From Methyloligellaceae bacterium (GTDB lineage Bacteria; Pseudomonadota; Alphaproteobacteria; Rhizobiales; CBDHHC01): 64,000 bases of DNA. The notes beneath the pieces were generated by a model. It had not been told where the DNA came from and made no database searches. It saw only the letters and a program-made list of their open reading frames with translations. Position 1 is the first letter of the stretch; each line of letters opens with the position of its first letter. Position numbers and translations under genes: made by a program. Below are positions 6,912-28,800 of the stretch, piece after piece. The stretch spans positions 79,134 to 143,133 of the forward strand of contig CBDHHC010000005.1 in the NCBI GenBank assembly GCA_965263345.1. The letters are read 5' to 3'.

Positions 6912-7475
6912 TTACATAAGATCCAGTTCAAGGTTTACAGGGCGTGTATATGTATTTGCGACTGGAGACCAATTTTTCACATGATCTAATAGGGCAGCAA
7001 CCTCTTCATCTGGAGCATCAGATTCCATATCAAGTTTGACGCGCACATCCGTAAAACCAACAGGTTTTTCTGAAACGTCGCCAGTTCCCCAAACCGCTGT
7101 AATGTTCAGGTCACCTTCAAGTTCGAGTTCAAGTTTTTTAATTTTAATGCCTCGTGCAATTGCATTTGCATGAATACCAACGGCAAGACATGATCCGAGA
7201 GCTGCTAAAGACGCTTCTGAAGGGTTTGGAGCTGTGTCATCACCAAGAAGCGCTGGCGGTTCATCCACAATATAAGGGGGAAGATCACGAATATAATTTA
7301 GATGTCTGAATTTTCCCTCAGCTACAGTTTTACATTTTAATGTTTTTATAGCCTGAGGGTTCTCTTTACCTTTCGTAATCAACGCATCAAGACCTGACTT
7401 ATCAATCGGGGCTAAGCCGTCTTCATCTGGTGCGAGACATGGAGTCATTGCAGTTGCTTCGTTCATCGAACTCAT
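6912..7475 (-). CDS. OsmC family protein
   Basis: 187 aa. APNPSEASLAALGSCLAVGIHANAIARGI and the C-terminal SPVANTY are typical OsmC/Ohr-fold motifs. Confidence 0.75.
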   Translation of the reverse strand: MSSMNEATAMTPCLAPDEDGLAPIDKSGLDALITKGKENPQAIKTLKCKTVAEGKFRHLNYIRDLPPYIVDEPPALLGDDTAPNPSEASLAALGSCLAVGIHANAIARGIKIKKLELELEGDLNITAVWGTGDVSEKPVGFTDVRVKLDMESDAPDEEVAALLDHVKNWSPVANTYTRPVNLELDLM

Positions 7476-7527
7476 TGATTTTCTCCTTTAGAGTTTACAT
7501 TTTTATGAAAGTTAATAATTCCCATAT

Positions 7528-8364
7528 TTATTCCTCCCGAACCCAACCAGTGACTTCGATTAATCTTTGCAGGCAAAAGTCGAGACCAAATCCTATTGCG
7601 CCGATAATGAGTACGGTTGCTGCAAGTCGATCATATTCCAGTGTGTCTCTAGCGTCGTTAATCGCATAACCGAGACCAGATGTGACCCCAAGGTATTCTG
7701 CTGGAACGAGAACAATCCAGGCCACTCCTAGTGCAAGGCGAATACCTGTTAAAATATCTTGAGAAATCGCTGGAAGAATAATGACAAACAACATATGCCA
7801 TGCCCTTGCACCAAGATTACGTGCAACTTTGAACCATGAGGGGTCCACCTTACGAAGTCCACTTGCAGTGGAAAAAATGATTGGCCATATTGCTGCTATT
7901 GCTACCAGGAAAATAATAGCGTCATCCCAACTTGCAAATGCCAGAACTGATATTGGCATCCAAGCTAATGGAGAAATCATTCGAAGAAATTGAAAGGGAA
8001 TATTCGTTGCGGTGCGTAACCAGCTATTTCGTCCTATAAGAATACCTACTGGAATTCCGATTGCGCAGGCCCACAATAATCCCATACCAACACGGTACAA
8101 ACTTGGCAGAGCAGCATTTGTTGCCTCACCAGTGGAAATCATATCAATAAGACGTGCGAATGTTGGCCCTGGAGCGAAATCTGAAAAAGATGACGTGTCT
8201 GGATTATTGGCAACAAGCCAGCCCCCAAACCACCATAAAACATAAAGAATACTTATACCAACGACGATGGGAAGTAACGACTGTAGAACAGCCGTTACCT
8301 TTGTTAAGAGGTGTATCTTTTGAGTATTTTGAATAGTCGTTTCTACAACTCCATCTACACTCAT
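7528..8364 (-). CDS. ABC transporter permease, NitT/TauT (nitrate/sulfonate/taurine/bicarbonate) family
   Basis: 278 aa with about 6 TM helices. EAA-type loop: KVDPSWFKVARNLGARAWHMLFVIILPA. Confidence 0.85.
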   Translation of the reverse strand: MSVDGVVETTIQNTQKIHLLTKVTAVLQSLLPIVVGISILYVLWWFGGWLVANNPDTSSFSDFAPGPTFARLIDMISTGEATNAALPSLYRVGMGLLWACAIGIPVGILIGRNSWLRTATNIPFQFLRMISPLAWMPISVLAFASWDDAIIFLVAIAAIWPIIFSTASGLRKVDPSWFKVARNLGARAWHMLFVIILPAISQDILTGIRLALGVAWIVLVPAEYLGVTSGLGYAINDARDTLEYDRLAATVLIIGAIGFGLDFCLQRLIEVTGWVREE

Positions 8365-9626
8365 ATTGCGACAATCTCTTCTCTATTGAAAGGGTCGCTC
8401 GGGTTGACACTTGGATCTTTTGTCCATTCTGGATATTTATTAAGCGCGTTTCTCACATATTCATAATCAACAAGATCTTTGGCAACAAATTCTGGATCAA
8501 GACCTTTTAAGAAGGTTTTGTCACCGCCAACGACTGTTTCATTCATTGACTTAACTATCAATTTGGTTGCTGAAGGATATGGCCAAGGTTGGAAATCCAC
8601 CCTACCGTTGCCCCACTCAGAATGTTTAATAGCTTCTGGATCTTTATATGTTTCTGTGTCATAGAGCGTCATGGCGCGTTCCACGACTTTCGCAGGCATT
8701 GGCAAATATTTCTTGCCATCTCTTGAGAGCATATGTGCTACTTCTTTTTTATTTTGCGACGCAAACACTTGAGCGCGGACAACTGCATTAATAACCTTTT
8801 GTGTCCATTCCTTCTTTTTCTTCGTGACATCTTCATGCATACAGACAACGCAGCATGGATGGTTCTTCCATATGTCCCCTGTAAAGCGCAGCATTTTTGC
8901 ACCAGCTTTCAATTCGCCCATGGCATTGAATGGTTCGGCAACTATGAAGGCGTCAATTTTTTTAGCAGCCAAAGCTGGAGGCATGTCTGGTGGTGGCATA
9001 ACCTGTAAGTTAACTTCATTCGGCGCAAGTTTTGCGTTTTGTGGCTTGATGACAGCTTTCAGCCCAGCACTGCGCAAGGCGATCTGAAGTACGATATTAT
9101 GCATTGAATACCAGTAAGGCACGGCAATCTGTTTACCGCCAAGTTCTGCAAATGAACCAACACCAGTATGTTTTCCTACGACTAGGCCAGAGCCATTTGT
9201 ATGTGCCCAACACATAATTTTAACAGGGAACTTGTTATTATATCTCATCCAAACCGGAATAGGTTTTAGAAAGTGAACAAGATTAAATTTACCCGCAGCA
9301 AATCCTTCAACAAGTGGTGACCAGCCACGAATAAGAGTGGGGCGTACGGCATCTAGGCCCTCATCCTTAAAGAATCCCATTCCATGTGCAACCAGTAATG
9401 CCGTTGCATCTGTGATGGGAAGATAACCAATACGAACAACATCATCATCTGCTGCGTTAGCAATCCCTCCCAGACCGGGCAGAATAGATGGCATTGCTGT
9501 CATCAAAGCGCCTGCTGCAAGCATATCTAATGTCTGACGACGAGAAAAATCTGAGTTAAAATACTCTTCATCCGGATCAGCAGAATCCGGCAAACTATTT
9601 TCTTTTACTTGGTCTTTTTCCGTCAT
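8361..9626 (-). CDS. Tat-exported ABC substrate-binding protein, NrtA/CmpA-like (NMT1 fold)
   Basis: 421 aa. Twin-arginine signal SRRQTLDMLAAGALMTAMP. VRIGYLPITDATALLVAHGMGFFKDEGLD resembles the NrtA/CmpA/SsuA N-terminal lobe. A 4-nt overlap links it to the permease gene. Confidence 0.8.
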   Translation of the reverse strand: MTEKDQVKENSLPDSADPDEEYFNSDFSRRQTLDMLAAGALMTAMPSILPGLGGIANAADDDVVRIGYLPITDATALLVAHGMGFFKDEGLDAVRPTLIRGWSPLVEGFAAGKFNLVHFLKPIPVWMRYNNKFPVKIMCWAHTNGSGLVVGKHTGVGSFAELGGKQIAVPYWYSMHNIVLQIALRSAGLKAVIKPQNAKLAPNEVNLQVMPPPDMPPALAAKKIDAFIVAEPFNAMGELKAGAKMLRFTGDIWKNHPCCVVCMHEDVTKKKKEWTQKVINAVVRAQVFASQNKKEVAHMLSRDGKKYLPMPAKVVERAMTLYDTETYKDPEAIKHSEWGNGRVDFQPWPYPSATKLIVKSMNETVVGGDKTFLKGLDPEFVAKDLVDYEYVRNALNKYPEWTKDPSVNPSDPFNREEIVAI

Positions 9627-11732: not shown

Positions 11733-13706
11733 TTATGATCCAATAATACCACCATCTTTTTTCGTAATTACGATTGTACAGTCGCGAGGAATTGTTACAC
11801 CATCAAACTCAGCTGGGAAGTTGGTGCTTGTTGGTGAACCATTACCTGGGTGCTGCATGTTGATGAACATTGTGCGACGGTCTGGTGTTACTGTGATACC
11901 AGTGATCTCATCACTGCTCACACCAACGAATAAACGACGCAGTTCACCAGTTTTTGTATCAGCAACAATCATTTGGTCTTGAAGGCCATCTGGCTGGCTA
12001 CCATCAGTCTGAATAAACAGGCGCCCATCTGGATCAGCCCATAGGCCATCTGGATCTGTAAATACATCTTCAGTACCTTGAGTAGAAGATGCTACGATAA
12101 ACAAATCCCACTTGAATGTTGTTCCAGTGTGTCTTTTGCTGTCACGCCATCTAATGATATGACCATCATTGTTAGGAGCTTCAGGATTTGACGCAGTCGC
12201 TTCTGTACGCTGAGAGTTGTTCGTCAATGTGCAATAAACGTCACCATTTGGAGCAACAGTAGCCCACTCAGGACGATCCATTGGTGTTGCACCGAGTAAG
12301 TCTCCTGCGATACGTGCATACGTTAGAAGCTCAGCCTGGTCTTTGAAACGAGCAGCAAGAACAGGATTGTCAATTGTTAACTCAAGCCACTCACCTGTGC
12401 CATCATCATTGAACTTAGCAACATAAAGCGTACCTTCATCTAAAGGACTCTTACCTTTTTTGATCATACGCTTCCAATTATCTGCAGATACGAATTTGTA
12501 GATATAGTCAAAGCGCTGGTCATCACCCATGTAACATACTGCACGTCCACCTTTACCAACAGTAACGGCAACACCTTCGTGCTTAACACGTCCTAGTGCA
12601 GTACGTTTTACAGGTTTCTTTTTACCATTCATTGGATCAATTTCTACAACCCAACCAAAACGGTTTCTCTCATTTGTATAAGCAGAGTTTGACAAATCAA
12701 AGCGTTCGTCAAAGTTTTCCCAACCATATCCAAAACCAGTCGTTGAGAAACCATAACGCTCATCTTCAGGTGTTGGTGTCCAGTCGCCAGTCGCACCAAA
12801 GTAACCGTTGAAGTTTTCTTCGCAAGTTAGATATGTGCCCCATGGAGTATACCCATTCGCACAGTTGTTTACAGTCCCTTGGAATGTATTGTCTGCACCA
12901 TTCTCAAGAAGTGGATGATCTGCAACTGGACCAGAAAATTCAACTTCTGTATTCACATGAATACGACGGGCATTTTTACTTTTGACTTGCTGCCATTTTC
13001 CATCAATTTTTTTAATCTTGACGATTGATACACCATGAGCATGTTGAGATAAACGCACATCATCTAAACTTTCTGGTGCTGATTTTCCAAGTACGTGTGA
13101 ATTTCTGCCAAATTCATGGTTTATCGCAAGCATGCCAACTTTATTGCGGCGTCTTAAGAACCTTCTGAATCTTCTGAAATAATTGTGCATATCGCCATGC
13201 TTACGATATGAGAATTCATTAGGGAAGAACCACATGCCGTCATGGCCAATACCGATCATCTCTTTTTGCTCTTCAGCAGTTGGACGACTGTTTGGGTCAC
13301 CTTCGTAAAGCGGTCCACCTGGTTGTAGTGGCTCACCCCAAGGGATCAGAACTTGATATTCATAATCATCAGATATTATAGGAAGTTTACCTTCAGCAGC
13401 CACAGCTTGTTCGATTGTAACTGGTGAAAAATTCATCAAGTTCTTGCGTTTCCATGGCTTATACCATCCGCCGGCATGCGCAGGTTTATTTCCTTGATAG
13501 ATTGTTAGAGCCGCTAAGCTGAGACCGCCAGCAACTAATGCTCTACGTGAAACACGCGCTGCTAAAATGTCTTCAAAAGGTCTATTACCAGATTTGTTAC
13601 AAATCTCATCACAACTTGCTTCGATAACTTCGTCTAAAGCTTCGGATTGAGCTTTCACATCATTATCAAATGGCGCTTGAACATGTTTGTCCATTATTTT
13701 CCTCAC
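11733..13706 (-). CDS. phoX: PhoX-family alkaline phosphatase, Tat-exported
   Basis: 657 aa. Tat signal VSRRALVAGGLSLAAL. PhoX/DUF839 signatures: GATPMDRPEWATVAPNGDVYCTLTNN and FINMQHPG. Confidence 0.85.
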   Translation of the reverse strand: MRKIMDKHVQAPFDNDVKAQSEALDEVIEASCDEICNKSGNRPFEDILAARVSRRALVAGGLSLAALTIYQGNKPAHAGGWYKPWKRKNLMNFSPVTIEQAVAAEGKLPIISDDYEYQVLIPWGEPLQPGGPLYEGDPNSRPTAEEQKEMIGIGHDGMWFFPNEFSYRKHGDMHNYFRRFRRFLRRRNKVGMLAINHEFGRNSHVLGKSAPESLDDVRLSQHAHGVSIVKIKKIDGKWQQVKSKNARRIHVNTEVEFSGPVADHPLLENGADNTFQGTVNNCANGYTPWGTYLTCEENFNGYFGATGDWTPTPEDERYGFSTTGFGYGWENFDERFDLSNSAYTNERNRFGWVVEIDPMNGKKKPVKRTALGRVKHEGVAVTVGKGGRAVCYMGDDQRFDYIYKFVSADNWKRMIKKGKSPLDEGTLYVAKFNDDGTGEWLELTIDNPVLAARFKDQAELLTYARIAGDLLGATPMDRPEWATVAPNGDVYCTLTNNSQRTEATASNPEAPNNDGHIIRWRDSKRHTGTTFKWDLFIVASSTQGTEDVFTDPDGLWADPDGRLFIQTDGSQPDGLQDQMIVADTKTGELRRLFVGVSSDEITGITVTPDRRTMFINMQHPGNGSPTSTNFPAEFDGVTIPRDCTIVITKKDGGIIGS

Positions 13707-13812
13707 AATTAAACATCTTCTCCCTTAATGCTGAAGGTGTGTTTTACCTCCTAGCAAAAGCCGCTGATAGTTTTGCGGAAGTACCAAATTATGAGGCTTT
13801 TCTTAAGCTGGT

Positions 13813-13830
13813 GCGACAGTTTGATGACAT
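13813..13830 (-). promoter_or_regulatory. Candidate Pho box upstream of phoX
   Basis: The minus strand reads ATGTCAT-CAAA-CTGTCGC, two 7-bp direct repeats spaced by 4 nt. This is close to the CTGTCAT-N4-CTGTCAT PhoB consensus. It lies 107-124 nt upstream of the phoX ATG. Confidence 0.4.
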
Positions 13831-13957
13831 ATTTATGAAGCAAATAAAAAGACAAATGTGCATTTTATTAAAACCTCTGCATTAACAGAGACTTAGTTTA
13901 ATTGATAGATTTAAACATTTTATTGATAGAAAATTTCTATAAATTTCTGTAAGGCAA

Positions 13958-14707
13958 TCAAAGATTGCGAGCCTGTTTTGCTAACTCAACCAGTCTCTGT
14001 CTCAGATCATTCAAAGTTTGTAATGGCTTATCAAACCAATAGCGTTGAACATAATCCCCATTTACCAAGTCCATGCCTTCAGGATCTATACTTGCGAGTT
14101 TCCATGTCCCATCAGCCTGATTCATAAGTTTGGTCGCATATAGATGAATTGCATCCAAATGATCTTCATTCATATGTTCCACTGCTCCAGCTTCGTATGC
14201 TTTAAGCTCATTATAATTTGACATATCAATCAGTAAATCTGATTTTGTAAGCTTACAAGTTTTACCAAATCCTCCATTTAGAGAGGCTCGTTCAACATCT
14301 AAATACCAAAAGGCAAAATCCCCAAAATCAGCATATAATGCAGCTTTGGGATGTTTATTCAAAAAACGTTTTTTTATTTGAGTTCGCCGTGCGTCCTGAG
14401 TTACTTTAATTGCTTTACCAATGACTGTAATACGCGGGTGAACAAGAGGATCTCCTTTACCTGGTTCTCCAAGTAGTATAGAGCATTTTTCATTGACTTC
14501 TAAAGCGGAAAAATGAGAGGCAAGACTAGATATAAGAAAAATTGGAGAGCCGTCCATATCGGTAGAACAACTGATACGGCTTGCAAGTGGAACTCCAGTG
14601 CCTGGCTCGATAGAGGCAAGTGCACCAAAACGTGTTGTCCGAAGGATTGTTTTTGCCAATCTTTTAAGGTCTTCATCAACAGGTTGTAAGATACCTTCTT
14701 TATTCAT
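13958..14707 (-). CDS. HugZ-like protein (pyridoxamine 5'-phosphate oxidase-related FMN-binding fold plus DUF2470)
   Basis: 249 aa. N-terminal split-barrel region (ARTILRTTRFGALASI...SPIFLISSLASH) and C-terminal HMNEDHLDAI region are typical of heme-utilisation HugZ/DUF2470 proteins. Confidence 0.65.
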   Translation of the reverse strand: MNKEGILQPVDEDLKRLAKTILRTTRFGALASIEPGTGVPLASRISCSTDMDGSPIFLISSLASHFSALEVNEKCSILLGEPGKGDPLVHPRITVIGKAIKVTQDARRTQIKKRFLNKHPKAALYADFGDFAFWYLDVERASLNGGFGKTCKLTKSDLLIDMSNYNELKAYEAGAVEHMNEDHLDAIHLYATKLMNQADGTWKLASIDPEGMDLVNGDYVQRYWFDKPLQTLNDLRQRLVELAKQARNL

Positions 14708-14763
14708 TTTGGTCTCTTTTATATCTAAAAGATCTGGAAAGATAATTCAGTATGAAGCAGAAC

Positions 14764-14791
14764 ATAAAAGGGCGGCATAAATATGCCGCCC
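14764..14791 (-). terminator. Rho-independent terminator downstream of the 5'-nucleotidase gene
   Basis: GC-rich perfect 10-bp stem gggcggcata / tatgccgccc (14770-14779 / 14782-14791). It is followed by TTTT on the minus strand. Confidence 0.75.
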
Positions 14792-14815
14792 TTCCGTAAT
14801 TTATTATATGAGAAT

Positions 14816-16807
14816 TTATGATCCTGAAGTATCAGTTCTTACAACTCGTGGATTTGCAGGAGGATCCTGCAGATTAACAGTTCCACCTAGAGATTGTGTG
14901 ATGTAATCTTCCAGGATCTGCTGCTCGCCGATTGCTGTTGTTTGCAATGAGTTTGCTGCACTAAAGGCTGCGTATCCATCGCCACCTGTTGCCAGGAAAC
15001 TATTTGTAGCTAGAACAAATGTTTGGCTTAAGATTGCAGGATCAGTTACAGCACCGTTTTGAATGAATGTAACAACTGTGCCATCAGCTCTTGTAATAAC
15101 AAGGTCCTGAACGCGTGAAGGTGTTGTTAAGCTTGCTAAACCTTGAATACCTGGCTGACTTGCATCATAACGAAGTGTCATGCCAGCAATTTGTGGGAAA
15201 CGGCCGTCAGCCGCAGGAACTCTTGAAACAGAGTTTTCCATAGCTGCAAGTAGCTGAGCACCAGTCATTTCAAGAATAGCTAATTGGTTATTAAATGCTA
15301 GAGCTGCTTGAATAGTCAAACGAATGATGTTTGGTCCTTGAATTGTATCACGGATACCACCACCGTTTTTCAGTGCAACATCAACATTTAATGTTGGGAA
15401 TGACTGTTGAACAAACCATAGAGTTGAATCAGCTGCTAAGCGCCCTAAATTTGTTTCACGACCACGAACATCTGCACGCAAGCCATTTAGTGCCGTTGTT
15501 GTTGTTCCAACTTGTGTGAACGCATTTTGGATAGTTGGTGTTTGCTGTAAGCTCACAAGAACGTCTTTAACCCGCTCTTCTGCACTTTCTTGATAACCTA
15601 TCACTTCACTAAGAAGATCAACAGCTTCTGTTGTTGTCGCAATAGGACCACTGCGTTCTGTATCAACACTTTTGATGATACCTTTCGGGGTGAACGTAAC
15701 GATCAAATGGCCAACATAACGGTAAAGTTGCTCTGTATTCACAACAAGAACTGGGTTTCCTTCACTGTCTTCTTGGAATACTGGATAGTTTGGATCTGTT
15801 TCTGATCTTGTATCTTCTGGGCGCAAGAAATTGAAAGGTCCATTTGCAGTTTGGTTAGCAAAGAAACCCGTACTTCCAGCAGATGCAATAATATCGATAC
15901 CTCTTAAAGATTGAGCCTGAAGTGGATCACCTGTGAAATCTTGGGCGTGATCTAGAAGAATGATACGCTTAATTCCTTTTTGCTCAAGCTTTTCAACTTG
16001 CTCAAGTACTTGACCTAAAGCTGAAACTAATGGTTGGTTTGTTTGAGGGTCACGTCCACCAACAAAGTCCAGACCTGGTATTGTTACTGTTGGGTTTTCA
16101 ATGACATTAAAGAAATCAGCAGGAGCGCGGCCAATTAGACCAACTTTTGAACCACCAACTCTTAACCAACAACTTTTTACAACTTTACCTTTGTTGCGAC
16201 CACATTTGCTTGCATCTTTACCAATACGAATTTTAGGTGTTCCATCAGCAAGCACAACCTTAGTGAAATCTAGGTTTGCCGCAAGAAATGGGTATTTTGC
16301 CGTATTCAACATGTGAGCGAATTCATCAATGCCGCCGTCAAACTCATGATTGCCCATACCATTTGCTTTAAGCTTCATCGCATTATACATTGCGATATCC
16401 CCAAGACCTGGCTGACCAAATTCTGCAACTTCTGAAGAGGCTTGATAGAATGGACCAGGAATTGTGTGGTCACCTGCTGTCACATGAAGTGAAGGAATAC
16501 AGTCACGCTTCGCAATTGCTTGAAGGCCGTTTACAATTGCAGAATATCCAAGGATTTTTTCTTCAAGAGTATTTGGATCTTGGAATGAAGACTCATTATC
16601 TGAACTATGAATCAACTGCAGGCTTCTATTCCAGTTTCTTGCACAAGAAAGACGACGTTTCCATTTATTACGGAAGTGCCTTTTCCACTTGTAGTGAGTT
16701 GTTTTTTTATAATGTTTTTTGTGACCATGCTCTGCTTTAGCTTGAAACTGCATAGATGCAACAAACATAAAACAGATAGCCAGAATCCCAACGAGGATAC
16801 GTGACAT
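14816..16807 (-). CDS. Secreted bifunctional metallophosphatase / 5'-nucleotidase (UshA-like)
   Basis: GNHEFD metallophosphoesterase motif (NGMGNHEFDGG) plus a 5'-nucleotidase C-terminal domain. The preferred start is ATG 16807 (GGGAGAAA RBS; MSRILVGILAICFMFVASMQFQAKA signal), not the ORF-track start at 16912. The mature N-terminus is strikingly His/Lys/Arg-rich. Confidence 0.85.
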   Translation of the reverse strand: MSRILVGILAICFMFVASMQFQAKAEHGHKKHYKKTTHYKWKRHFRNKWKRRLSCARNWNRSLQLIHSSDNESSFQDPNTLEEKILGYSAIVNGLQAIAKRDCIPSLHVTAGDHTIPGPFYQASSEVAEFGQPGLGDIAMYNAMKLKANGMGNHEFDGGIDEFAHMLNTAKYPFLAANLDFTKVVLADGTPKIRIGKDASKCGRNKGKVVKSCWLRVGGSKVGLIGRAPADFFNVIENPTVTIPGLDFVGGRDPQTNQPLVSALGQVLEQVEKLEQKGIKRIILLDHAQDFTGDPLQAQSLRGIDIIASAGSTGFFANQTANGPFNFLRPEDTRSETDPNYPVFQEDSEGNPVLVVNTEQLYRYVGHLIVTFTPKGIIKSVDTERSGPIATTTEAVDLLSEVIGYQESAEERVKDVLVSLQQTPTIQNAFTQVGTTTTALNGLRADVRGRETNLGRLAADSTLWFVQQSFPTLNVDVALKNGGGIRDTIQGPNIIRLTIQAALAFNNQLAILEMTGAQLLAAMENSVSRVPAADGRFPQIAGMTLRYDASQPGIQGLASLTTPSRVQDLVITRADGTVVTFIQNGAVTDPAILSQTFVLATNSFLATGGDGYAAFSAANSLQTTAIGEQQILEDYITQSLGGTVNLQDPPANPRVVRTDTSGS

Positions 16808-17223
16808 AATATTTCTCCCTATTATCTCAGCTTTGTTTTGTGAAGTCTGAGAAATACAAATGTCATATTTCAGTTTTGTGAAAGTAATTGCCTTTGAGGT
16901 AGTAACAAACAAAAATAACTAAAAAAAACACATAACTTTAATGCGTAAATTTCAATTATCCTATTGATAATATTTGCAAATAAATTGTTATGAGATAGAA
17001 TGAACTGTCAGATTGTAAATCAAAAAATATAGTTACAAAACATTTCTAAGTTGATTATATCAAGTCAAAACTTACGATTTTCTCTTGTTTACAAGATCTC
17101 AACAATAGACACAAAATTAGGTAAAAAATCCATTCTTAAACATTTTATCTAGGTTGTTTATGAATATGCCCGTAGAGAAAAATTTCTGATGAGTGGTATT
17201 ATTCAAGCGAATGTTGGGTTTGA

Positions 17224-18625: not shown

Positions 18626-18887
18626 GGCTTTGAAAATAATTGCGAAGAGGTTTCTGGTCCAATAACATAATCCTTTCCAGCGAGATTATGCCACCAAAAC
18701 GACACTTTTTTTTATTACGTCTACAGCCCATACTAAGTAACAATAATAACGTTACATGTTGGACGAGACATAGCGGTTTTTGAATAATATTATGGTCAAC
18801 ATTGTTTTAGAGATTGTGGCACTAGAACTACGTCTCGGAAAAAAATATAGCTCGGCTTCTTTCTAAATATTTTGAGAAGGAATTATA

Positions 18888-19559
18888 ATGATAATATTTA
18901 AAAAGTCTTTTCTTATAGCTAGTCTTGCACTCATGATGATTAACCATCCTCTCGTAAACGCACAAGACTCAAATGCTCTTTCTGATCAGGAACTTAAGCA
19001 AGCAATTGATATAGAAAAACAACATCTCCAAAATCAATTAGCCGCCCCTGCTACAACACGTAAGACAGGTATTACAGGCCTGGCGGCAACAGCAGCTGGA
19101 CGCAAAGGCAAAACAGTCGTCACATCAATTGTCCCTGTTGGCTCTACCTCTACAATTGAACGTAGTAAAGTTATAGCCCCTGCCTCTTCAGTTGGAAAAA
19201 AGCGAGCTGTTGTAACACGCTATGATTATTCAACAGGTATCACGACACGAACAACTATTGATTTGGGTAGTGGTAAGGTACTGGCTGTTCGCAGTAAATT
19301 AAATTATCCGACAGCTCTAGCTGCAGAAGAACTTGAAGAAGCAAAAACTCTCTTAATTAAAGAGGAGCCAGCAATTGACAAAATTGTGAAAGAATATGGT
19401 TCAGACAAGGTTAAATTTTTTCATCTGACTTTGAACTCAAAAAATCCTTCAGACAAACGATACGGACACCGTCTGTTATGGCTCTGGATTGCCAAACCAG
19501 TTCAAACAAACAAATATCTGGTAGACTTAAGCACAAACGAAATTGAGAAGATCAAATAA
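18888..19559 (+). CDS. Secreted protein corresponding to the N-terminal (D2/D3-like) domains of copper amine oxidase
   Basis: 223 aa with a Sec signal (MIIFKKSFLIASLALMMINHPLVNA). NALSDQELKQAIDIEKQ resembles the start of the amine-oxidase N2 domain. The C-terminus HRLLWLWIAKPVQTNKYLVDLSTNEIEKIK resembles the end of N3. Comparison is to remembered E. coli/Arthrobacter sequences. Confidence 0.55.
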   Translation: MIIFKKSFLIASLALMMINHPLVNAQDSNALSDQELKQAIDIEKQHLQNQLAAPATTRKTGITGLAATAAGRKGKTVVTSIVPVGSTSTIERSKVIAPASSVGKKRAVVTRYDYSTGITTRTTIDLGSGKVLAVRSKLNYPTALAAEELEEAKTLLIKEEPAIDKIVKEYGSDKVKFFHLTLNSKNPSDKRYGHRLLWLWIAKPVQTNKYLVDLSTNEIEKIK

Positions 19560-19665
19560 TTTACTCTGATAAGATAATATATCAGTAGCGCATATCAAAC
19601 ACATATATTTTAATAAACTAATTACGATAAACTTTCAAAATTTATAACATATGTTGGAGGGTAGT

Positions 19666-20934
19666 ATGTCAAAAGGCTCTATGAAATTCCTGAGGTATGT
19701 TTGTGTTTTTATAACTTTCTTCATGATCCCAATTATCACAAGTCATCATTCGATTGCAGCAGAATTAACACAATATTTTCCAGCCGTGCCTGAAGGACAA
19801 ACATCCCCAGCGAAAGAGAGCGGCTGGCGCATTAAATGGCAAGTTCTTGAACCTGGCACACACGATTATGGAGGCTCTGCGATTCTTGAATTTCAAAGCA
19901 TTGAATTTATGAAAGGTCTCAAGGAGGACGGGACTGAAGACTGGGTTAAAATTTTAAATAACCTAGCCTTAGCGGAAATGTATGTTCCCTATAACAGTGG
20001 CACAGCTTTTCTAGATGTAAGCCAGTTTAATTTTAGCCTTTTGCCTGCCAAAGAATCTTATTTGCCAAAACACGGTGTTGTCAGTGCTAAAATTGAAGAT
20101 CGTTACGTTATCAGTGAAGTCATTGATGATGGTGTTAGGTGGCTTGACAATAATGATGATTTTAAAGTCCAACGAGGGCAGGCCATTCGCCTTTGGACCA
20201 CATTACATGCTGCAAACTACACTTATACTATTGTTTATACGTTTGCAGATGACGGACGGATAAGTGTACGTGTTGGTGGTACCGCACAAAATTTACGGGA
20301 CCTAGTAAATGAAGATAGTCTGAATAATGCAACCCATGTTCATATGGGAGCCTGGCGCATGGAGTTTGACTTAGGAGATGCAAACGCTAATAAAGTAGAA
20401 GTTGCAGAACGTGTTCTTGACCCAAATACAAATCGATACCGCGTCCAATTTCGTCCCTTTAATGGTGGTAATGAAGGGGGTGAAGATTGGAACCCAGAAA
20501 AATATACTGTGATTAAAGTAACAAATAATGTCACGATGAACCGTCATAATCCGCCCCGCAATATCTCTTATGTCTTAAAAACCAAAAAAACAGGAAAACT
20601 CAAAGACAGAGAAGATATTACCTCACATGATTATTGGGTCAGCAGGTTGGTCCCTGAAAACGAGGAACGTCGTGCTCAATCTCCGGAGCTTCGTTACATT
20701 GATTTACCAGATAATGTTTCCCAACCAGAAACACTAGATAATCAGGCTGTCGTGCTATGGCATAATGCCGGCTTACAGCATATTCCAAGGGGCGAAGATT
20801 TTGGGGCAAATGGTTTTTTTGCGGCAGATGGAGCGGCCATTAACTCATATGCTGGATTTGATCTTGTGCCAGTTAACCTCTGGCATCAAACACCTTTCTT
20901 AAAACGCCCGTCTACTCGCGTGAATAGAAATTAG
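19666..20934 (+). CDS. Secreted copper amine oxidase catalytic-domain (D4) protein
   Basis: Start is ATG 19666, 5 nt after GGAGG. It has its own signal peptide. Motifs: YVPYNSGTAFLD (catalytic Asp region), ANYTYTIVYTFADDGRI (TPQ Tyr motif), THVHMGAWRMEFDLGD (HxH Cu ligands), LWHNAGLQHIPRGEDF (third His). Confidence 0.75.
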   Translation: MSKGSMKFLRYVCVFITFFMIPIITSHHSIAAELTQYFPAVPEGQTSPAKESGWRIKWQVLEPGTHDYGGSAILEFQSIEFMKGLKEDGTEDWVKILNNLALAEMYVPYNSGTAFLDVSQFNFSLLPAKESYLPKHGVVSAKIEDRYVISEVIDDGVRWLDNNDDFKVQRGQAIRLWTTLHAANYTYTIVYTFADDGRISVRVGGTAQNLRDLVNEDSLNNATHVHMGAWRMEFDLGDANANKVEVAERVLDPNTNRYRVQFRPFNGGNEGGEDWNPEKYTVIKVTNNVTMNRHNPPRNISYVLKTKKTGKLKDREDITSHDYWVSRLVPENEERRAQSPELRYIDLPDNVSQPETLDNQAVVLWHNAGLQHIPRGEDFGANGFFAADGAAINSYAGFDLVPVNLWHQTPFLKRPSTRVNRN

Positions 20935-20983: not shown

Positions 20984-22849
20984 ATGAAATTGTATCAACC
21001 ATCTGAAGTAACTTTATGGTTTACAAAAATAAGCGTCCTTTCTTTCTTCACCATAAGCCTGCTTTCTATAGACATATCTGGCTCTTTTTTAGATAAACGG
21101 GTAATTTCTTCTCAAGGCCTGCCTTTTTTATCATTAATTACCATCGCACCTGTTCATGCTCAACAAACGACTCGTGACAAACTTGTTCAAAAAAATAAGA
21201 AACTAAAGGCTTTTTTGAGGAAGATTACTAAGACGGACGATATCATTAAAAAATTTGGACGCGCTAGAATTGTTGTTAAATATAAAGATAAAACTCCTAA
21301 AATTACACCTCCTGGAATCGGGACACGGGCTTGGTATCAAACTTGGAAATTTGTAGGGTTTCCAGCTGCTGCGCCTAGTAAACTATTAGGTAAATCAAAG
21401 TTTGTCAGAAAAGATGTAACGCAATCTGAGTTGGACGCTTTACGGAAGAATCCAGAGATTGATTTAATCATAACTGATATCCCACTTCCCCCAGCCTTGT
21501 TTCAGAGTGGTCCGTTTGTTCGACCTAAGCTTAAGCAATTTCCGTTAGCTAACCGTCCGAAGCGCCAGAGTCATGCTGCTATAGTCCTTGATACAGGTAT
21601 AGAATCTGACCATCCCTTTTTATCTGATGCTCTTTTAAATGATTTTGCAGCCTGTTTCTCAACGGAGCAACTAACTCCCCCCTTTACTGCAGAAACGTTA
21701 TGTCCAAATGGTGAACTGGTTGCAAAAGGTATTGGAGCAGCTGAGCCTTGTGATCCCAAAATTGTTTCTTGCGACCATGGTACACATGTGGCTGGAATTA
21801 TATCTGGATGGAATGGGAATTTTGATAATAAGGTCTTCCATGGCATAGCACCAGAAGTCCCACTTATTCCCGTGCAGATCTATTCAAAAATTACAGCAAA
21901 AGATGTTTGCGAAGCTTATGGTTTTGAGTCACCTTGTATCCTCTCATTTATCTCTGATCAACTCGAGGCTTTGGCCTATGCTCAAGAATTAAATGATAAG
22001 GGCGTTCCAATTGGTTCTGTTAATTTAAGTCTTTCTTTTGGTGCTCTTGTTGGTGCATGCGATGAGGATGAAACTGCAAAACCTCTTGCTCAGGCAATAC
22101 AAAGGCTATCTACACAAAATATTCCAGTTGTTGTCGCTGCAGGCAATGAAGCTGATTTAACCGGTGTGGGTATTCCAGGATGTGTAGATGCAGCTGTCAC
22201 AGTTGCTGCATCTGATAATGATGGCAAACTGGCACTTATTTTTCCTGGTACAGATGGCGGCTCAAACTTTTCAGATATGGCTGACCTAGGAGCGCCCGGT
22301 TTAGAAATTATTTCTTCAGTCCCAGGCAAGGGGTTTCAAAAGAAAAGCGGAACTTCCATGTCTGCTCCTCATGTTGCAGCATTATTAGCAAAAGCTCGAT
22401 CTTTAAAGCCTGAGATTACCGTCAAACAACTTATAGGGATTATATCAAACCTTTCAGAAAAAAATATTGAACACCCTCTATCGCAACTTAAAAGGCCTGT
22501 CGTTAAATTTGACGGAGAAAAGTTTTTAGCAGCTTTATCTCCAACGGGAGCTAATCTTTTGGCAGGGCCCGCTTCGGCAGGAAAGACAAGAAAGTTTTTG
22601 CAAACTTTTAAGAAAAAAAGCAACCGATTGATAATTGATTATGGAGATGATAACCCAGAGGAGTTACAACAGAAGATTTTCAAACTTCTTGAAAAAATGG
22701 GTATCAAGGTCGTTAAGACAGAAAATAAAACAAGTAAACTCAGTGTTATTGTAACGGAAAAACCTATTAATCCTGAAGAGCTAGAATCGTTAAAAGAAGA
22801 AAGCAAAATAAAAGGCCTTTATCAGGACGTACCTTTTCCTCTGCCTTAA
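20984..22849 (+). CDS. Secreted subtilisin-like serine protease (peptidase S8) with a ~130-aa C-terminal extension
   Basis: 621 aa. Catalytic triad motifs are in order: VLDTGIESDHP (Asp), CDHGTHVAGII (His), SGTSMSAPHVAALLA (Ser). N-terminal hydrophobic signal/anchor. Confidence 0.88.
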   Translation: MKLYQPSEVTLWFTKISVLSFFTISLLSIDISGSFLDKRVISSQGLPFLSLITIAPVHAQQTTRDKLVQKNKKLKAFLRKITKTDDIIKKFGRARIVVKYKDKTPKITPPGIGTRAWYQTWKFVGFPAAAPSKLLGKSKFVRKDVTQSELDALRKNPEIDLIITDIPLPPALFQSGPFVRPKLKQFPLANRPKRQSHAAIVLDTGIESDHPFLSDALLNDFAACFSTEQLTPPFTAETLCPNGELVAKGIGAAEPCDPKIVSCDHGTHVAGIISGWNGNFDNKVFHGIAPEVPLIPVQIYSKITAKDVCEAYGFESPCILSFISDQLEALAYAQELNDKGVPIGSVNLSLSFGALVGACDEDETAKPLAQAIQRLSTQNIPVVVAAGNEADLTGVGIPGCVDAAVTVAASDNDGKLALIFPGTDGGSNFSDMADLGAPGLEIISSVPGKGFQKKSGTSMSAPHVAALLAKARSLKPEITVKQLIGIISNLSEKNIEHPLSQLKRPVVKFDGEKFLAALSPTGANLLAGPASAGKTRKFLQTFKKKSNRLIIDYGDDNPEELQQKIFKLLEKMGIKVVKTENKTSKLSVIVTEKPINPEELESLKEESKIKGLYQDVPFPLP

Positions 22850-24518: not shown

Positions 24519-25841
24519 TTATCTCTCTGAAAATGCCACATCAATTGATCTATATATTGGCTTTAATAAGTACTTTAATACTGACTTTGACCCTGTGATA
24601 ATCCGTGCATCAACCTGCATTCCAGGGAGTAAATGTAATGAAGATATTTTATTAGAATTCGTATTATCCCGGTCTATGGCAATATACCCTCTAAAATATG
24701 ATTTCCCATCATCATCCTTAAAACTTGATGCTGATATATCTGTTAACTTACCTAACAGTTTTCCATATACATTAAAATCGTATGTTGTAATGACGAGCTC
24801 TGCCGTATCACCTAATTTAACATGTCCGATATCTTTTGTTTGAATCCTTACCTCTGCAACCAATTCTTGGGTTGTTGGCACAACCTCAATAATATCTTTA
24901 CCTGGTGCTATAACAGCTCCTGTATTTTTAGGTACAACTTCTTTTATTAAACCATCAATAGGAGATCTAATACTCAATCGGTTAAACTGATCTTTAAAGC
25001 TACGCAATCTATGTTGTAGACTTATTTTTTCTTCAACGACCTTTGCTAATTCCTGGATTGTGGACTTTTTCACTTCAGATTGCTTCTGATGTAATCTTCT
25101 TGTTGCATCCGAGAGTTTCTCTTTAGCTTGCTCTAGCCTAACAATTGCAGAGAAAACTGCTGTTTGAGCTTTTTGATAAGACGCTTTTCGATCTAGTAAA
25201 TCTATACGTGATGTGTATCCCTGATCGCTCAGTTTATTTTGTATGTTGAATACTTCAGTCTTAATAGCAAGTTCTTTTTTAAATTCACTTACTTCTTTTT
25301 CATGAGCTTTAATTTCAAGCTTTGTATGCTCTATTTGATCTTCGATTGCAGCTATAATTTTATTTTGATCATTCACATTCGCTTCATATGTTGCTTGCTG
25401 TAATAGAATAAGGCTTTTATTGGTTTGCTTCAATTTCGAAAAATCAGGGCGTTCCCCTGATATCTCTGCACGCAATCGAATTTCTTCCAGCTTCAACCAA
25501 TTTAGACGAGACTTAACACGATTCAATTCACTAGAAACTTGTATTCCACTTAAGGTCGCTAAAGTTTGCCCAACCTTTACTTGGTCCCCTGGCCTGACAA
25601 GAATTTTTTCAATAATCCCACCTTCAAGATGCGAGATTGTTTTTATTTTACCTTGAGGAGTCAGCTCACCTTTAGTTGAGGCAACTTCTTTAATTTCTGA
25701 AAAACTTGCCCATACAAATAATAGTGATACACACGCAAATACAATATATAAAATGACAGATAGCATTCTTGGAGGATGACCATCTTCTAATTCTATTGGT
25801 CTGCTAATAAATTGACCGAAATTTCTTGAAAATAAACTCAT
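24519..25841 (-). CDS. HlyD-family type I secretion membrane fusion protein
   Basis: 440 aa. One N-terminal TM helix, a GGIIEKILVRPGDQVKVGQTL lipoyl-like hairpin, a long coiled coil, and C-terminal LLPGMQVDARIITGSKSVLKYLLKP. It lies directly downstream of the ABC gene. Confidence 0.88.
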   Translation of the reverse strand: MSLFSRNFGQFISRPIELEDGHPPRMLSVILYIVFACVSLLFVWASFSEIKEVASTKGELTPQGKIKTISHLEGGIIEKILVRPGDQVKVGQTLATLSGIQVSSELNRVKSRLNWLKLEEIRLRAEISGERPDFSKLKQTNKSLILLQQATYEANVNDQNKIIAAIEDQIEHTKLEIKAHEKEVSEFKKELAIKTEVFNIQNKLSDQGYTSRIDLLDRKASYQKAQTAVFSAIVRLEQAKEKLSDATRRLHQKQSEVKKSTIQELAKVVEEKISLQHRLRSFKDQFNRLSIRSPIDGLIKEVVPKNTGAVIAPGKDIIEVVPTTQELVAEVRIQTKDIGHVKLGDTAELVITTYDFNVYGKLLGKLTDISASSFKDDDGKSYFRGYIAIDRDNTNSNKISSLHLLPGMQVDARIITGSKSVLKYLLKPIYRSIDVAFSER

Positions 25842-25874: not shown

Positions 25875-28800
25875 TTATGCAGCGCTCGATAATCTATTGA
25901 GCATATCTTCTGGGTTTCCATCAAAAACTATTTGTCCTGTTTTTAAATATAGTGCTCTATCTGCCATCTCTATCAGAGATTCATTTTGTGTAACCATAAT
26001 AATCGTTGTGTTATCCTTTTGTGAGAGTAATATTTTTTTGAGCAACTCTAGCCCTTCTGGGTTTAACTTCTGATCAGGGTTGTCATAGAAGAATATTTTT
26101 GATGGTTTCACTAAGGTTCTTGCTAATAGTATTCTTTGTTTCAAATCATTTGGCATTTCTGCTATGCGTTTACTTGTTAGACGTGTGTCTAACCCTTCTG
26201 GTAGAAACTCTCCATATTCTCCAACAGTGAGCCCTAATTCCTCAGAAATTGTAGCAAGGTCTATTTCTGAAACTGTTGGGTTCGCAAGTTTTAGGTTTTG
26301 TTGTACGGTTCCATAGAAGAGATCTAAATTCTTTGGCACATAACTTATTGCGTGTCTCCATTCACCTGGATCTAATTGCCTAATGTCAATATCATCTGCC
26401 AATACAGCTCCACCACGAATGGGGTATAGACCAAGAAGGACTTTTAGTATTGTTGATTTTCCAGAACCACTGTTGCCAGTAATAGCAACAAACTGTCCTG
26501 GTTTTACTGAAAAGCTTAAACCTCGTAAAACAAAATCGTTTGTTGAAGGATAACCAAAAACAAGTTTTTTAGCTTCTATTTTTCCATTAAAACTACGATA
26601 TATTGAAGGCAGTTTATTAGGTGTTTTTTCTAGAGTAATCCTCATTAACTTATTAACTTGATCTAGACTCTGCAATGTATTTCCGAGTTGGGTTAAATTC
26701 ACAAATGCTTGATGTAATGGATTTAATACTCTCCACAATAATGCCATAACTGCGATTAACGCTCCTGCAGTTAGTACACCTTCCATGGCGAATAATGCTC
26801 CTAATCCAAGAGTAGCAATTCCAGCAATTTGTATGGCAGCTTGTGAAATTGTTTGTAGATTAAAGTTTAGAGCTTTGACATTAATATTTTTTATTTCATG
26901 AAAGTTTGAAAGATTCTGGAAACGTTTTATCCATAGCCCTTCAGCTGAAACACCTCTAATCGCATTATGGTTGTCCAACGCTTCTATAATGAGATTCTGT
27001 ACGTCTGCCTTGCTTGTACTCGCATCACTTGAGTATTTCTTTATCATAGGAATACATAACATAAGAGTAACTATATATAGACCTACAAGAGTTATAGGAA
27101 TTGCTACAATAGAACCACCAATAGCAAAAATTGCTATTAAGAAAATAAAGATAAATGGAATATCTACAATAGCATTCACTAGCGGCCCAGTGAAAGCTTC
27201 ACGGACACTTTCAAGAAGTCTCAATCTTGTAATTTGACTTCCAATAGATGCTGTTTCAGTTAAACCAATAGGCATATGTAGTAGGTGTGAAAAAGCCTGT
27301 GTACTTATCAATTCTTCTAGTCTGGCCCCTAAATAGGCTTGTGCTTTCCCACGGACAGTTCTTATGAGTATATCAGTACAAACAATAATGCTTATGCCTA
27401 CCATGAACGATAGAAGCACATAATTAGAACCAGCACCAATGGCTTTATCATAAACATTCATAACAAAAATTGGTAGAGCTAATGCAAACATATTACTAAG
27501 TAACCCAAGGCCTAAAATAATATACATCAAGCTCTTGAATTTCTTAAAAAGATCCCCTAGCCAATTGTGAGTTTTAACTTTTTCAGGACTCTCTCTATGA
27601 ATAGGAGACATTATATAGGCGACGCCTTTAAGCTCTTTATTGACATCAATATCTATAAACTCTTGTGTCTCACCATTAAAAATACTAAGTGTGTCTTCAC
27701 CCTCAAAACCTAATAAAACGTATGTTTTGTTTTTTGTCTCAAAGATACAAGGTAACTCTTCTTGTGTTAGTTTCGTGACGCATGTTCTTTTTGGCTTGGT
27801 CATGTAATTTAACCGGACAAGAACAGACCTCAAGTCCTCAACCGTTTCAATTTTATCAAAATGCGGCAAAGACTCAAAAAGGTGCCTTTCTATTCCGTTC
27901 CATCCCATAGCCATAAGCAGAGGATCTAAGCAATGTTGTGCAGCTGGTATTTTTTGTAGTTCTTCATTGTGTTCTGAGTTTGCTAGTTGATTTTCTAAAA
28001 GTTCTAAACTTTCGTGAACAGAATTTGATTTCTCAGGTCTGATCGTAATTTTCTCATCTATTTTCTGCAATGCGCCAGTATCTTTTGAATCATCAAAAAA
28101 ATCAATTTCTTGGTTAGCGCTTGCTGCAATGCCTTCATCTAGAAGTTGCCCGCCCCAAATTTCAAACCTCTGCTCTGCAATATTTAGAATATTATTATCC
28201 TGGCTGATTATTATAATCACCATGTTCTTTTTTAATTCATTAAGTGCGCTCTTAAGCATCTCAAAAGCGGAAGCATCTAAAATATTAGAAATATCATCAA
28301 GTATTAGTATTTTTGGGGAAAGAGAAATTGCTCTTGCAATTGAAATCATTTGTAGAAATGATTTTGGAAGGTCTTCATTGATACCATCACCAAGCTGAGT
28401 ATCGTAACCGTTAGGAAGCAAGTGGATATCATTTTCTAATCCCAGCAAAGCCGCTATACGCCTTGCCGCATGTGTATCCGAGGTTTCTCCAAACATTGTA
28501 AGGTTACTGATAATACTACCCTTAAATGACGATGGCTTACTACTGACATACGCTATGGATTTTTGCAGATATTTATTTTCATCGTCGGTAGCATATTCTG
28601 TCCCTATTTTAATAGTTCCTTGCGATGGTGCTTGATACAAACAGAGCAAATCAATGAATGTTGACCGCTCAACAGCATCACTAATTTTAAACCCTGTTAT
28701 TTTGCCTTTATCACAAGAAAATGAAACAGATTCGATAATTGTTCTTTCTAATTGCTTATTGTGATATGTAAGGTCTGTGACTTCCAACTTAGCTTCTATC

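Follow-up and report, generated by a model that had tools for sequence, protein, structure and literature searches.

Introduction

A stretch of 64,000 nucleotides (nt) from a Methyloligellaceae bacterium (contig CBDHHC010000005.1, positions 79,134 to 143,133 of the forward strand; the whole stretch is referred to as the window) carries two neighbouring genes, here called A and B, that a reading of the letters alone had taken for a copper amine oxidase (CuAO) divided between two separately exported proteins; we refer to this reading as the original prediction. According to a 2012 crystallography review (PMC3382800), all CuAO with a characterised structure are homodimers, each subunit being a single chain of 70-80 kDa, and the solved CuAO chains that we found in a search of the Protein Data Bank (PDB) have 620-797 amino acids (aa), as opposed to the two genes here. 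In the literature that we searched, we found no description of a split CuAO, an absence that is limited to that literature. The locus raises the question of whether A and B are fragments of a recently broken gene, two proteins that function independently of each other, or two subunits of one enzyme.

Here, we report that A and B are likely the two halves of a copper/topaquinone (TPQ) amine oxidase, the gene of which was split long ago between domains D3 and D4 and has been kept in this form since. The reading of the pair as a two-subunit, or domain-in-trans, enzyme is well supported by homology, synteny and natural fusions. The pair is a form of a well-known enzyme and not a new kind of enzyme.

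Results

A and B are adjacent genes with separate export signals

Gene A (18888..19559, forward strand), as defined by its open reading frame (ORF) and by homology, encodes a predicted exported protein of 223 aa that resembles the N2 and N3 (D2/D3) domains of CuAO and would be an accessory subunit. Its ATG is preceded at a distance of 6 nt by a Shine-Dalgarno sequence (AAGGA, 18877..18881, forward strand), which was read from the sequence. Gene B (19666..20934, forward strand) encodes a predicted exported protein of 422 aa that corresponds to a compact D4 catalytic subunit. The ORF of gene B is open from a first ATG at 19651 to 20934, equivalent to 427 aa; the ATG at 19666 is the more likely start, because a Shine-Dalgarno sequence (GGAGG, 19656-19660) is located 5 nt upstream of it. 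Counted from this start, the two genes are separated by a spacer of 106 nt (19560..19665, forward strand), which is AT-rich and non-coding and holds the GGAGG sequence. No terminator-like sites were found between A, B and the S8 peptidase gene that follows. The two ORFs, their sizes and the gap between them agree with the original prediction, and the strings that it had quoted, i.e. NALSDQELKQAIDIEKQ, ...NKYLVDLSTNEIEKIK, AFLD, NYTY, THVHMG and LQHIPRGEDF, are all present.

The N termini of A and B both have a basic stretch followed by a hydrophobic core and an A-x-A-like site, as judged by rule-based prediction. In A, the signal peptide (MIIFKKSFLIASLALMMINHPLVNA, 18888..18962, forward strand) has two lysine residues ahead of a hydrophobic core with a Kyte-Doolittle score of 2.70 and is predicted to be cleaved after VNA, i.e. 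between VNA and QD; in B (MSKGSMKFLRYVCVFITFFMIPIITSHHSIA, 19666..19758, forward strand), the score is 2.95 and cleavage is predicted after SIA, i.e. between SIA and AE. By the same rules, a signal-peptide-like N terminus is present in 12 of 15 members of the A family and in 33 of 33 members of the B family, and the three A-family members that lack it look like mis-called starts. Thus, as had been proposed, each gene has a signal peptide of its own.

Synthesis of a single A-B product by read-through or frameshifting was rejected. Such a product is not plausible because the two genes are in different frames and are separated by the AT-rich, non-coding spacer, which contains stop codons; moreover, B is equipped with a Shine-Dalgarno sequence and a signal peptide of its own.

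Protein B is a compact catalytic domain

Protein B matched the Pfam family Cu_amine_oxid (PF01179) with an E-value of 3.4e-18 (66.2 bits; cut-off 27). This match spans only positions 136-399 of the 407 positions of the profile; a profile built from 33 B-family sequences and alignments with hhalign widened it to nearly the whole D4 domain. We identified 71 relatives of B with a length of about 400-450 aa, nearly all of which are from metagenomes or metagenome-assembled genomes (MAG) and several of which are labelled 'Cu2+-containing amine oxidase' in the source annotation. Searched against the PDB, the 33-sequence profile matched AGAO, the phenylethylamine oxidase of Arthrobacter globiformis, with an E-value of 1.5e-18 and ECAO, the E. 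coli amine oxidase TynA, with an E-value of 3e-15. For the hhalign comparisons with ECAO, the product of the E. coli gene tynA was used as the reference, and the residue numbering was checked on the sequence. Similarly, hhalign aligned the B family with ECAO at 98 % probability (E-value 3.4e-14), and a permissive hhalign alignment placed B 27-423 on ECAO 287-756.

The catalytic residues of ECAO map one to one onto B, and the D4 hallmarks named in the original prediction, i.e. the base aspartate, the TPQ tyrosine and the three copper histidines, are all found in B and are invariant in its family. Y114 (19990..19992; all codons in this paragraph are on the forward strand) corresponds by HMMER and hhalign to Y369 of ECAO and Y284 of AGAO, the tyrosine that hydrogen-bonds to O4 of TPQ. 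D122 in the motif AFLD (20014..20016) is the candidate catalytic base and is paired by hhalign with D383 of ECAO in AYLD; this pairing requires a deletion of six residues after VPY, and plain HMMER placed D122 elsewhere. N189-Y190-T191-Y192 (20215..20226) aligns with the TPQ consensus NYDY of AGAO and ECAO, with Y190 as the putative precursor tyrosine, and N189, Y190 and Y192 are opposite N465, TPQ466 and Y468 of ECAO. In H229-V-H231 (20335..20343), the two histidines align with the copper ligands H524 and H526 of ECAO, while H377 in LQHIPRGED (20779..20781) aligns with the third copper ligand, i.e. H689 of ECAO and H592 of AGAO. Across the 33 B-family sequences, with identities down to 33 %, Y114, D122, Y190, Y192, H229, H231 and H377 are invariant, and N189 is kept in at least 90 % of the sequences.

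Among solved structures, AGAO (PDB 1AV4, 3X3X) is the best sequence match for B, and its N-Y-x-Y, HxH and H...RxED motifs align with those of B. AGAO is also a Foldseek match for A and for a fusion of A and B (see below), and it has the same D2-D3-D4 set of domains, without D1. By contrast, AGAO is one chain of 638 aa, while here D2-D3 and D4 come from two genes, each of which encodes a signal peptide; NYDY of AGAO is replaced by NYTY in B, and B is shorter, several loops of ECAO and AGAO being deleted from it in the alignments. ECAO (PDB 1OAC, 1DYU) is synthesised as one precursor of 757 aa that additionally contains a D1 domain and has the canonical NYDY; none of these features applies to the pair, and where ECAO aligns with A and B, only about 25 % of the residues are identical. 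ECAO, i.e. TynA, is exported by a signal peptide into the periplasm.

As a separate observation, the B protein of the window (427 aa) clusters at 90 % identity with four proteins of 56 aa (P0260-P0263), which occur on up to 9 contigs, the longest of 172,682 bp, and one of which is the cluster representative. These proteins may be fragments of close B homologues or may reflect mis-clustering.

Protein A corresponds to domains D2 and D3

Protein A belongs to a family of unannotated proteins of about 200 aa with 15 close members, and a search of 1.84 billion representatives with an A-family profile returned 297 clusters. Searches of Pfam, NCBIfam and PDB sequences with A alone or with a 15-sequence profile gave nothing significant, the sub-threshold matches being DUF6191 (E-value 0.26), PRK11504, which is the NCBIfam primary-amine oxidase (E-value 0.024), and unrelated PDB chains. 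The homology of A to CuAO surfaced only with a deeper profile of the family, with a predicted structure and with classical CuAO as targets.

In hhalign, a profile of 129 A-family sequences aligned with ECAO with an E-value of 9.2e-5 and a score of 38.2, starting from the first residue of D2 and pairing A 27-139 with residues 125-212 of the ECAO precursor; in a control with 150 shuffled ECAO sequences, the mean score was 13.5 (sd 2.3, maximum 20.8), corresponding to a z of about 10.7 for the real alignment. With a smaller A profile, A 29-224 aligned onto ECAO 125-309, i.e. onto D2 plus D3 and nothing else, and the second domain of A was aligned to ECAO 213-309. A metagenome scan yielded seven single-chain CuAO in which Pfam recognises N2 and/or N3 together with the catalytic domain, and the A-family hidden Markov model (HMM) matched the N-terminal part of five of the seven, with E-values that include 1.5e-11 and 3.2e-9. 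The first of these matches covers residues 27-216 of the CuAO of L054, in which residues 33-116 are assigned to N2 and residues 123-221 to N3 by Pfam; the first domain of A aligns with this N2 and the second with this N3. Finally, when the A family was aligned by hhalign with eight classical CuAO, i.e. these seven and ECAO, the probability was 95.9 % and the E-value 5.1e-9 over A 27-221.

The AlphaFold model of A, with a predicted local distance difference test (pLDDT) score of 81, contains two helix-plus-four-strand alpha/beta units. The first, N2/D2-like domain comprises residues 28-140 (18969..19307, forward strand), as delimited by the AlphaFold2 (AF2) model and hhalign, and has a helix at 33-51 and strands at 76-84, 106-113, 118-125 and 130-138. 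The second, N3/D3-like domain comprises residues 141-223 (19308..19556, forward strand), as delimited by the AF2 model and the alignment, and has helices at 146-159 and 161-170 and strands at 176-182, 196-203, 209-213 and 218-222. In a Foldseek search of the PDB with this model, the top 50 matches were all CuAO (best E-value 5.8e-6). In an alignment of 15 members, the most conserved motifs of the A family are NYPTxLAxxE, YGHR and VDLST of the N3-like domain, and the top motif, N139-x-P141-T142-x-L144-A145-x-x-E148, sits at the start of this domain.

Mature A matches ECAO at both of its ends, the N terminus being similar to the beginning of D2 (HPLNALTADEIKQAVEIVK) and the C terminus to the last residues of D3 (VVDLEQKKIVKIE). 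The D2-start string that the original prediction had given for E. coli is real and corresponds to residues 123-141 of the TynA precursor; the likeness of HPL..NALSDQELKQAIDIEK in A to this string is also real, but taken alone it is marginal (E-value 0.016 in a single BLASTP comparison, A 20-44). Similarly, the proposed likeness to the end of D3 is marginal for the VDL...KI strand alone (E-value 1.3); in the profile alignment, A ends at the end of D3. At the break point, A ends in ...YLVDLSTNEIEKIK, which is aligned to ...VVDLEQKKIVKIE of ECAO, and the start of mature B is the start of the D3-D4 linker of ECAO. As judged from these alignments, the gene break is exactly at the D3/D4 boundary. 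In total, based on the profiles, the Foldseek matches and the natural fusions described below, we conclude that A and the N2 and N3 (D2/D3) domains of CuAO are homologous.

The gene split is old and conserved

In 34 loci from genomes, MAG and metagenomes, B is directly preceded by an A-like ORF with the same orientation, and a locus search begun from A likewise arrives at B. Grouped by identity of B, these loci fall into 28 groups at 95 %, 15 groups at 70 % and four groups at 50 %. The carriers comprise Hyphomicrobiaceae, other Alphaproteobacteria, Candidatus Acidiferrales, Gemmataceae and the cultured Caulobacter sp. AP07, and the split spans at least three phyla, including Acidobacteriota and Planctomycetota. 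Across the loci, the spacers between A and B are often tiny or the genes overlap, and both halves retain their invariant motifs down to about 30 % identity. One exception, L011, has a B gene that lacks the first ~110 residues and has no A; a second, L043, is considered below.

Four metagenomic proteins of 536-621 aa (P0135, P0158, P0169 and P0209) are rare natural fusions of the same A-like and B-like sequences, with an A-like N terminus and a B-type C terminus matching Pfam Cu_amine_oxid. In place of the stop codon, the spacer and the signal peptide of B, they have a Pro-rich linker of ~40 residues; they lack an internal signal peptide, and a signal-like hydrophobic stretch is present at the N terminus. 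Their B-like part has NY-R/K/V/I-Y, HxH and H..RDED, and A of the window matched P0169 in BLASTP with an E-value of 2e-11. In a neighbour-joining (NJ) tree rooted on D4 of ECAO, the four fusions form a single clade that is surrounded by split lineages, and the relatives of the fused P0135 are mostly B-only. This topology suggests an ancestral split with occasional re-fusion; NJ is a rough method, so that we infer the direction rather than observe it.

These data bear directly on the explanation that a single-chain CuAO gene was recently broken by a frameshift or nonsense mutation and that the two ORFs are pseudogene fragments. In line with such an event, both ORFs are collinear with a single-chain CuAO and single-chain members exist in the same clade. 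However, the split recurs in 28 non-redundant loci from three phyla, the invariant motifs are held in both halves of distant relatives, B has its own Shine-Dalgarno sequence as well as a signal peptide that all 33 of its relatives share, the spacer is non-coding and not a shifted frame, and the fused forms are a small nested clade. We regard a recent disruption as extremely improbable. Because the break falls at the D3/D4 boundary, the genes adjoin in 34 loci and natural fusions are rare, we conclude that A-B is an old, selected gene split and not a pseudogene. The original prediction was therefore right that the pair is not a simple frameshift, and the alternative it had raised, i.e. that orthologues are fused and the copy in the window is a recent disruption, is refuted, the split being the rule and the fusions a nested minority.

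A likely assembles with B in one enzyme

Using AF2, we modelled a fusion in which mature A is joined to mature B without a linker. The alignment supplied to AF2 contained the four natural fusions, 27 A-only and 12 B-only rows and was mostly unpaired; two MAFFT alignments of mixed A-only, B-only and fused rows, in which the A-only rows fell on B columns, were discarded. The model had a pLDDT of 90.2 and a predicted template modelling (pTM) score of 0.76, and Foldseek matched it to CuAO only, with an E-value of 3e-27 and ~690 collinear columns. In this model, the domain order and the folds agree with CuAO while the rigid-body arrangement differs. In characterised CuAO, the conserved residues of the amine channel include positions 155 and 156 of HPAO-1, the Hansenula polymorpha amine oxidase (PMC3382800); judged by their position in the sequence, these residues would fall in D3. 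Strict adjacency, natural fusions and the known architecture of CuAO together suggest that A assembles with B.

Several observations weigh against the reading of A and B as the two halves of one CuAO. First, the Pfam models for N2 and N3 (PF02727/PF21994 and PF02728) did not match A even at an E-value of up to 1, and AGAO-like_N2 was weakly matched by four of 44 aligned sequences (family members and natural fusions; best E-value 0.034); the N2/N3 assignment thus failed with the Pfam models, while the reciprocal A-family HMM, hhalign and Foldseek were positive. Second, A alone superposes only moderately on CuAO (TMq 0.44-0.50 in Foldseek), and the A+B fusion model, from linkerless and mostly unpaired input, superposes with a TM score of 0.45-0.48 and a root-mean-square deviation of ~21 Å; consequently, either the modelled placement of A differs from that of D2/D3 on D4 in crystals, or the construct or the alignment misled the model. 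Third, in L043, a B gene with ~34 % identity to B of the window is preceded by a different small secreted protein, demonstrating that B can exist without A next to it. Fourth, mature B has ~385 residues, i.e. ~100 fewer than the D4 of the review, which describes this domain as roughly 500 residues (PMC3382800). Finally, the residue after the TPQ tyrosine is Arg or Thr in the 33 aligned relatives of B, none of which has Asp or Glu at this position, and B of the window, with H-A-A-N-Y-T, also lacks the leading Thr/Ser of the published consensus, T-X-X-N-Y-D/E (PMC3382800). Owing to this N-Y-T/R-Y site, the cofactor chemistry of B may differ.

Some of these observations would also be consistent with A and B as independent partners, in which case B would be a D4-only homodimeric oxidase and A, although descended from N2/N3, would do another job without forming a stable complex; for example, it might help in the periplasm to load copper or to mature the cofactor, as an escort, or it might be a module that binds a substrate or the cell surface. 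The active site, the copper ligands and the dimer interface of CuAO all lie within D4 (PMC3382800), the fusion model lacks the classical packing, and L043 has B without A. Moreover, an A-like second domain ends the tyrosinase P0206 (see below), so that the module can serve other enzymes. Against independence, adjacency and co-orientation are strict in 34 loci, with spacers that are often tiny or overlapping, and A and B occur in nature as covalent fusions. In addition, the top A motif starts the N3-like domain, which in classical CuAO would face the amine channel. Based on these considerations, we find it unlikely that A and B act independently, and we favour two subunits of one oxidase.

The small secreted protein of L043 (150 aa, in positions 1-830 of the locus) has its C-terminal half repeated just upstream (...LEKLNDLNNSDIFANITI.RNGETA...). 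This protein may be an alternative partner of B.

Neighbouring genes and the activity of the pair

The gene for an S8 (subtilisin-like) peptidase of 621 aa (20984..22849, forward strand; Pfam Peptidase_S8, E-value 4.6e-28) is located 49 nt after B and is probably the third gene of the operon, in the sub-lineage of the window only. An S8 orthologue with 53 % identity is in the same position in L002, and in L001 the A-B pair is followed by a tyrosinase gene (7365-8858) and then by an S8 gene; in Pfam scans of the neighbours, the S8 gene was absent at the other examined loci. The same scans did not identify a wider conserved operon beyond the A-B pair at the examined loci, the neighbours at the other loci being an SbmA/BacA-type ABC transporter, an AraC regulator, methyltransferases and unrelated genes. 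Searches using phmmer with four peptidase and two tyrosinase queries, a method too insensitive for S8 peptidases, found no further neighbours of these kinds. In L009, L010 and L024, which represent one sub-lineage, the SbmA/BacA-type transporter (ABC_membrane_2 and ABC_tran) is encoded downstream of B, with a methyltransferase next in L009 and L024. In L015 (1-5800), an apparent operon encodes peptidases of the S8 (Peptidase_S8, 666 aa) and M6 (Peptidase_M6, 923 aa) families and, in last position, the fusion P0135; this is a second, independent association of the oxidase clade with secreted proteases.

The neighbours and the altered TPQ consensus are relevant for a third explanation, according to which the pair has the CuAO fold and a different chemistry or substrate, i.e. 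it would oxidise peptide or protein amines in a lysyl oxidase-like manner together with the neighbouring protease, or have another cofactor outcome. This explanation would fit with the absence of Asp and Glu after the TPQ tyrosine, with the S8 peptidase genes next to the pair in the window and in L002 and L001, with the S8 and M6 peptidases that flank the fusion of L015, and with the tyrosinase between B and S8 in L001. Moreover, some CuAO, including Pichia pastoris lysyl oxidase (PPLO), take peptides (PMC3382800). PPLO (PDB 1N9E, 1W7C), which has the CuAO fold and TPQ and accepts peptidyl lysine, was matched by the B-family profile with E-values of 3.3e-9 and 1.7e-8 and is among the PDB matches (1rky, 1n9e); unlike the split pair, it is eukaryotic and a single chain of 747-787 aa. 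Given the protease neighbours, a functional analogy of the pair to PPLO is possible. However, the residues for amine oxidation are invariant or nearly so, the altered TPQ consensus aside, and peptidase neighbours are limited to one sub-lineage and the fused locus, most loci being flanked by other genes. A different chemistry or substrate therefore appears improbable to us; in the protease-linked sub-lineage, the pair may act on peptides or proteins, but nothing in our data supports such a role. The simplest reading of the sequences is that the pair is an exported oxidase that would release ammonia from primary amines.

The metagenomic tyrosinase P0206 (675 aa) has a C-terminal domain (552-656) that matches the N3-like domain of the A family with an E-value of 8e-11. 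Based on this fusion and on the tyrosinase gene between B and S8 in L001, the N3-like module may be used by different types of secreted copper oxidase. In a more far-reaching proposal, to which we give little credence, A would be a free-standing, exchangeable subunit, and not simply a remnant of gene fission, that pairs in trans with secreted copper oxidases, both D4-only amine oxidases and tyrosinases, and sets substrate access, and the A-B-S8 cassette of the sub-lineage of the window, with the tyrosinase in L001, would be an extracellular system for oxidising or cross-linking peptide or protein amino groups, with a variant quinone site (N-Y-T/R-Y), as a bacterial analogue of lysyl oxidase that is assembled from separate parts.

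The closest A-B-S8 cassette is that of L002, which is on a Hyphomicrobiaceae MAG contig with 57 % G+C and has identities of 75-78 % for B, 56 % for A and 53 % for S8. The window has 39 % G+C throughout and no composition anomaly at the A-B-S8 operon. The difference between 39 % and 57 % G+C, despite the closest proteins, suggests old horizontal transfer of the cassette between distant lineages or strong amelioration.

Elsewhere in the window, the region upstream of the operon (11733-16912, reverse strand) encodes the alkaline phosphatase PhoX, together with a CREG/DUF2470 protein and a 698-aa 5'-nucleotidase-like protein; the neighbourhood of the operon contains many scavenging enzymes that are probably secreted. 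Further downstream is a very long RTX-type gene (30000-33170, forward strand) with ~70 tandem 27-nt units encoding GGSGDDRIS (Pfam HemolysinCabind); these tandem repeats account for a local jump in G+C (0.49) and in GC skew (+0.27). The frame of this gene is broken between 30944 and 32618, reflecting either a real disruption or mis-assembly of the repeats. Beside it, a type I secretion pair is encoded, consisting of HlyD (24519-25841, reverse strand) and an unusual double ABC transporter of 1322 aa (25875-29843, reverse strand).

Discussion

Our analyses support a working model for the two-subunit oxidase. A and B would be co-transcribed, together with the S8 peptidase gene in the sub-lineage of the window, and each protein would be exported unfolded via Sec by its own signal peptide and would fold either in the periplasm or extracellularly. 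B is predicted to bind Cu(II) through H229, H231 and H377 and may itself process Y190 into TPQ; it would then oxidise a primary amine to the aldehyde, NH3 and H2O2 with D122 as the catalytic base. A would dock non-covalently on B, probably as A2B2, and would supply the N3-derived wall of the substrate channel.

To our knowledge, the role of the peripheral domains D2 and D3 has never been separable from the catalytic domain. In a naturally occurring, widespread CuAO encoded by two genes, a comparison of B with and without A would show how D2/D3 influence folding, the loading of copper, the biogenesis of TPQ, the formation of the substrate channel and specificity. Moreover, the replacement of the acidic residue beside TPQ in this clade provides a natural test of how essential that position is. 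Finally, the findings bear on annotation: about 300 clusters of ~200-aa 'hypothetical proteins' can be named as CuAO N2/N3-like subunits, and ~400-aa 'Cu2+-containing amine oxidase' genes that adjoin A should not be taken as truncated.

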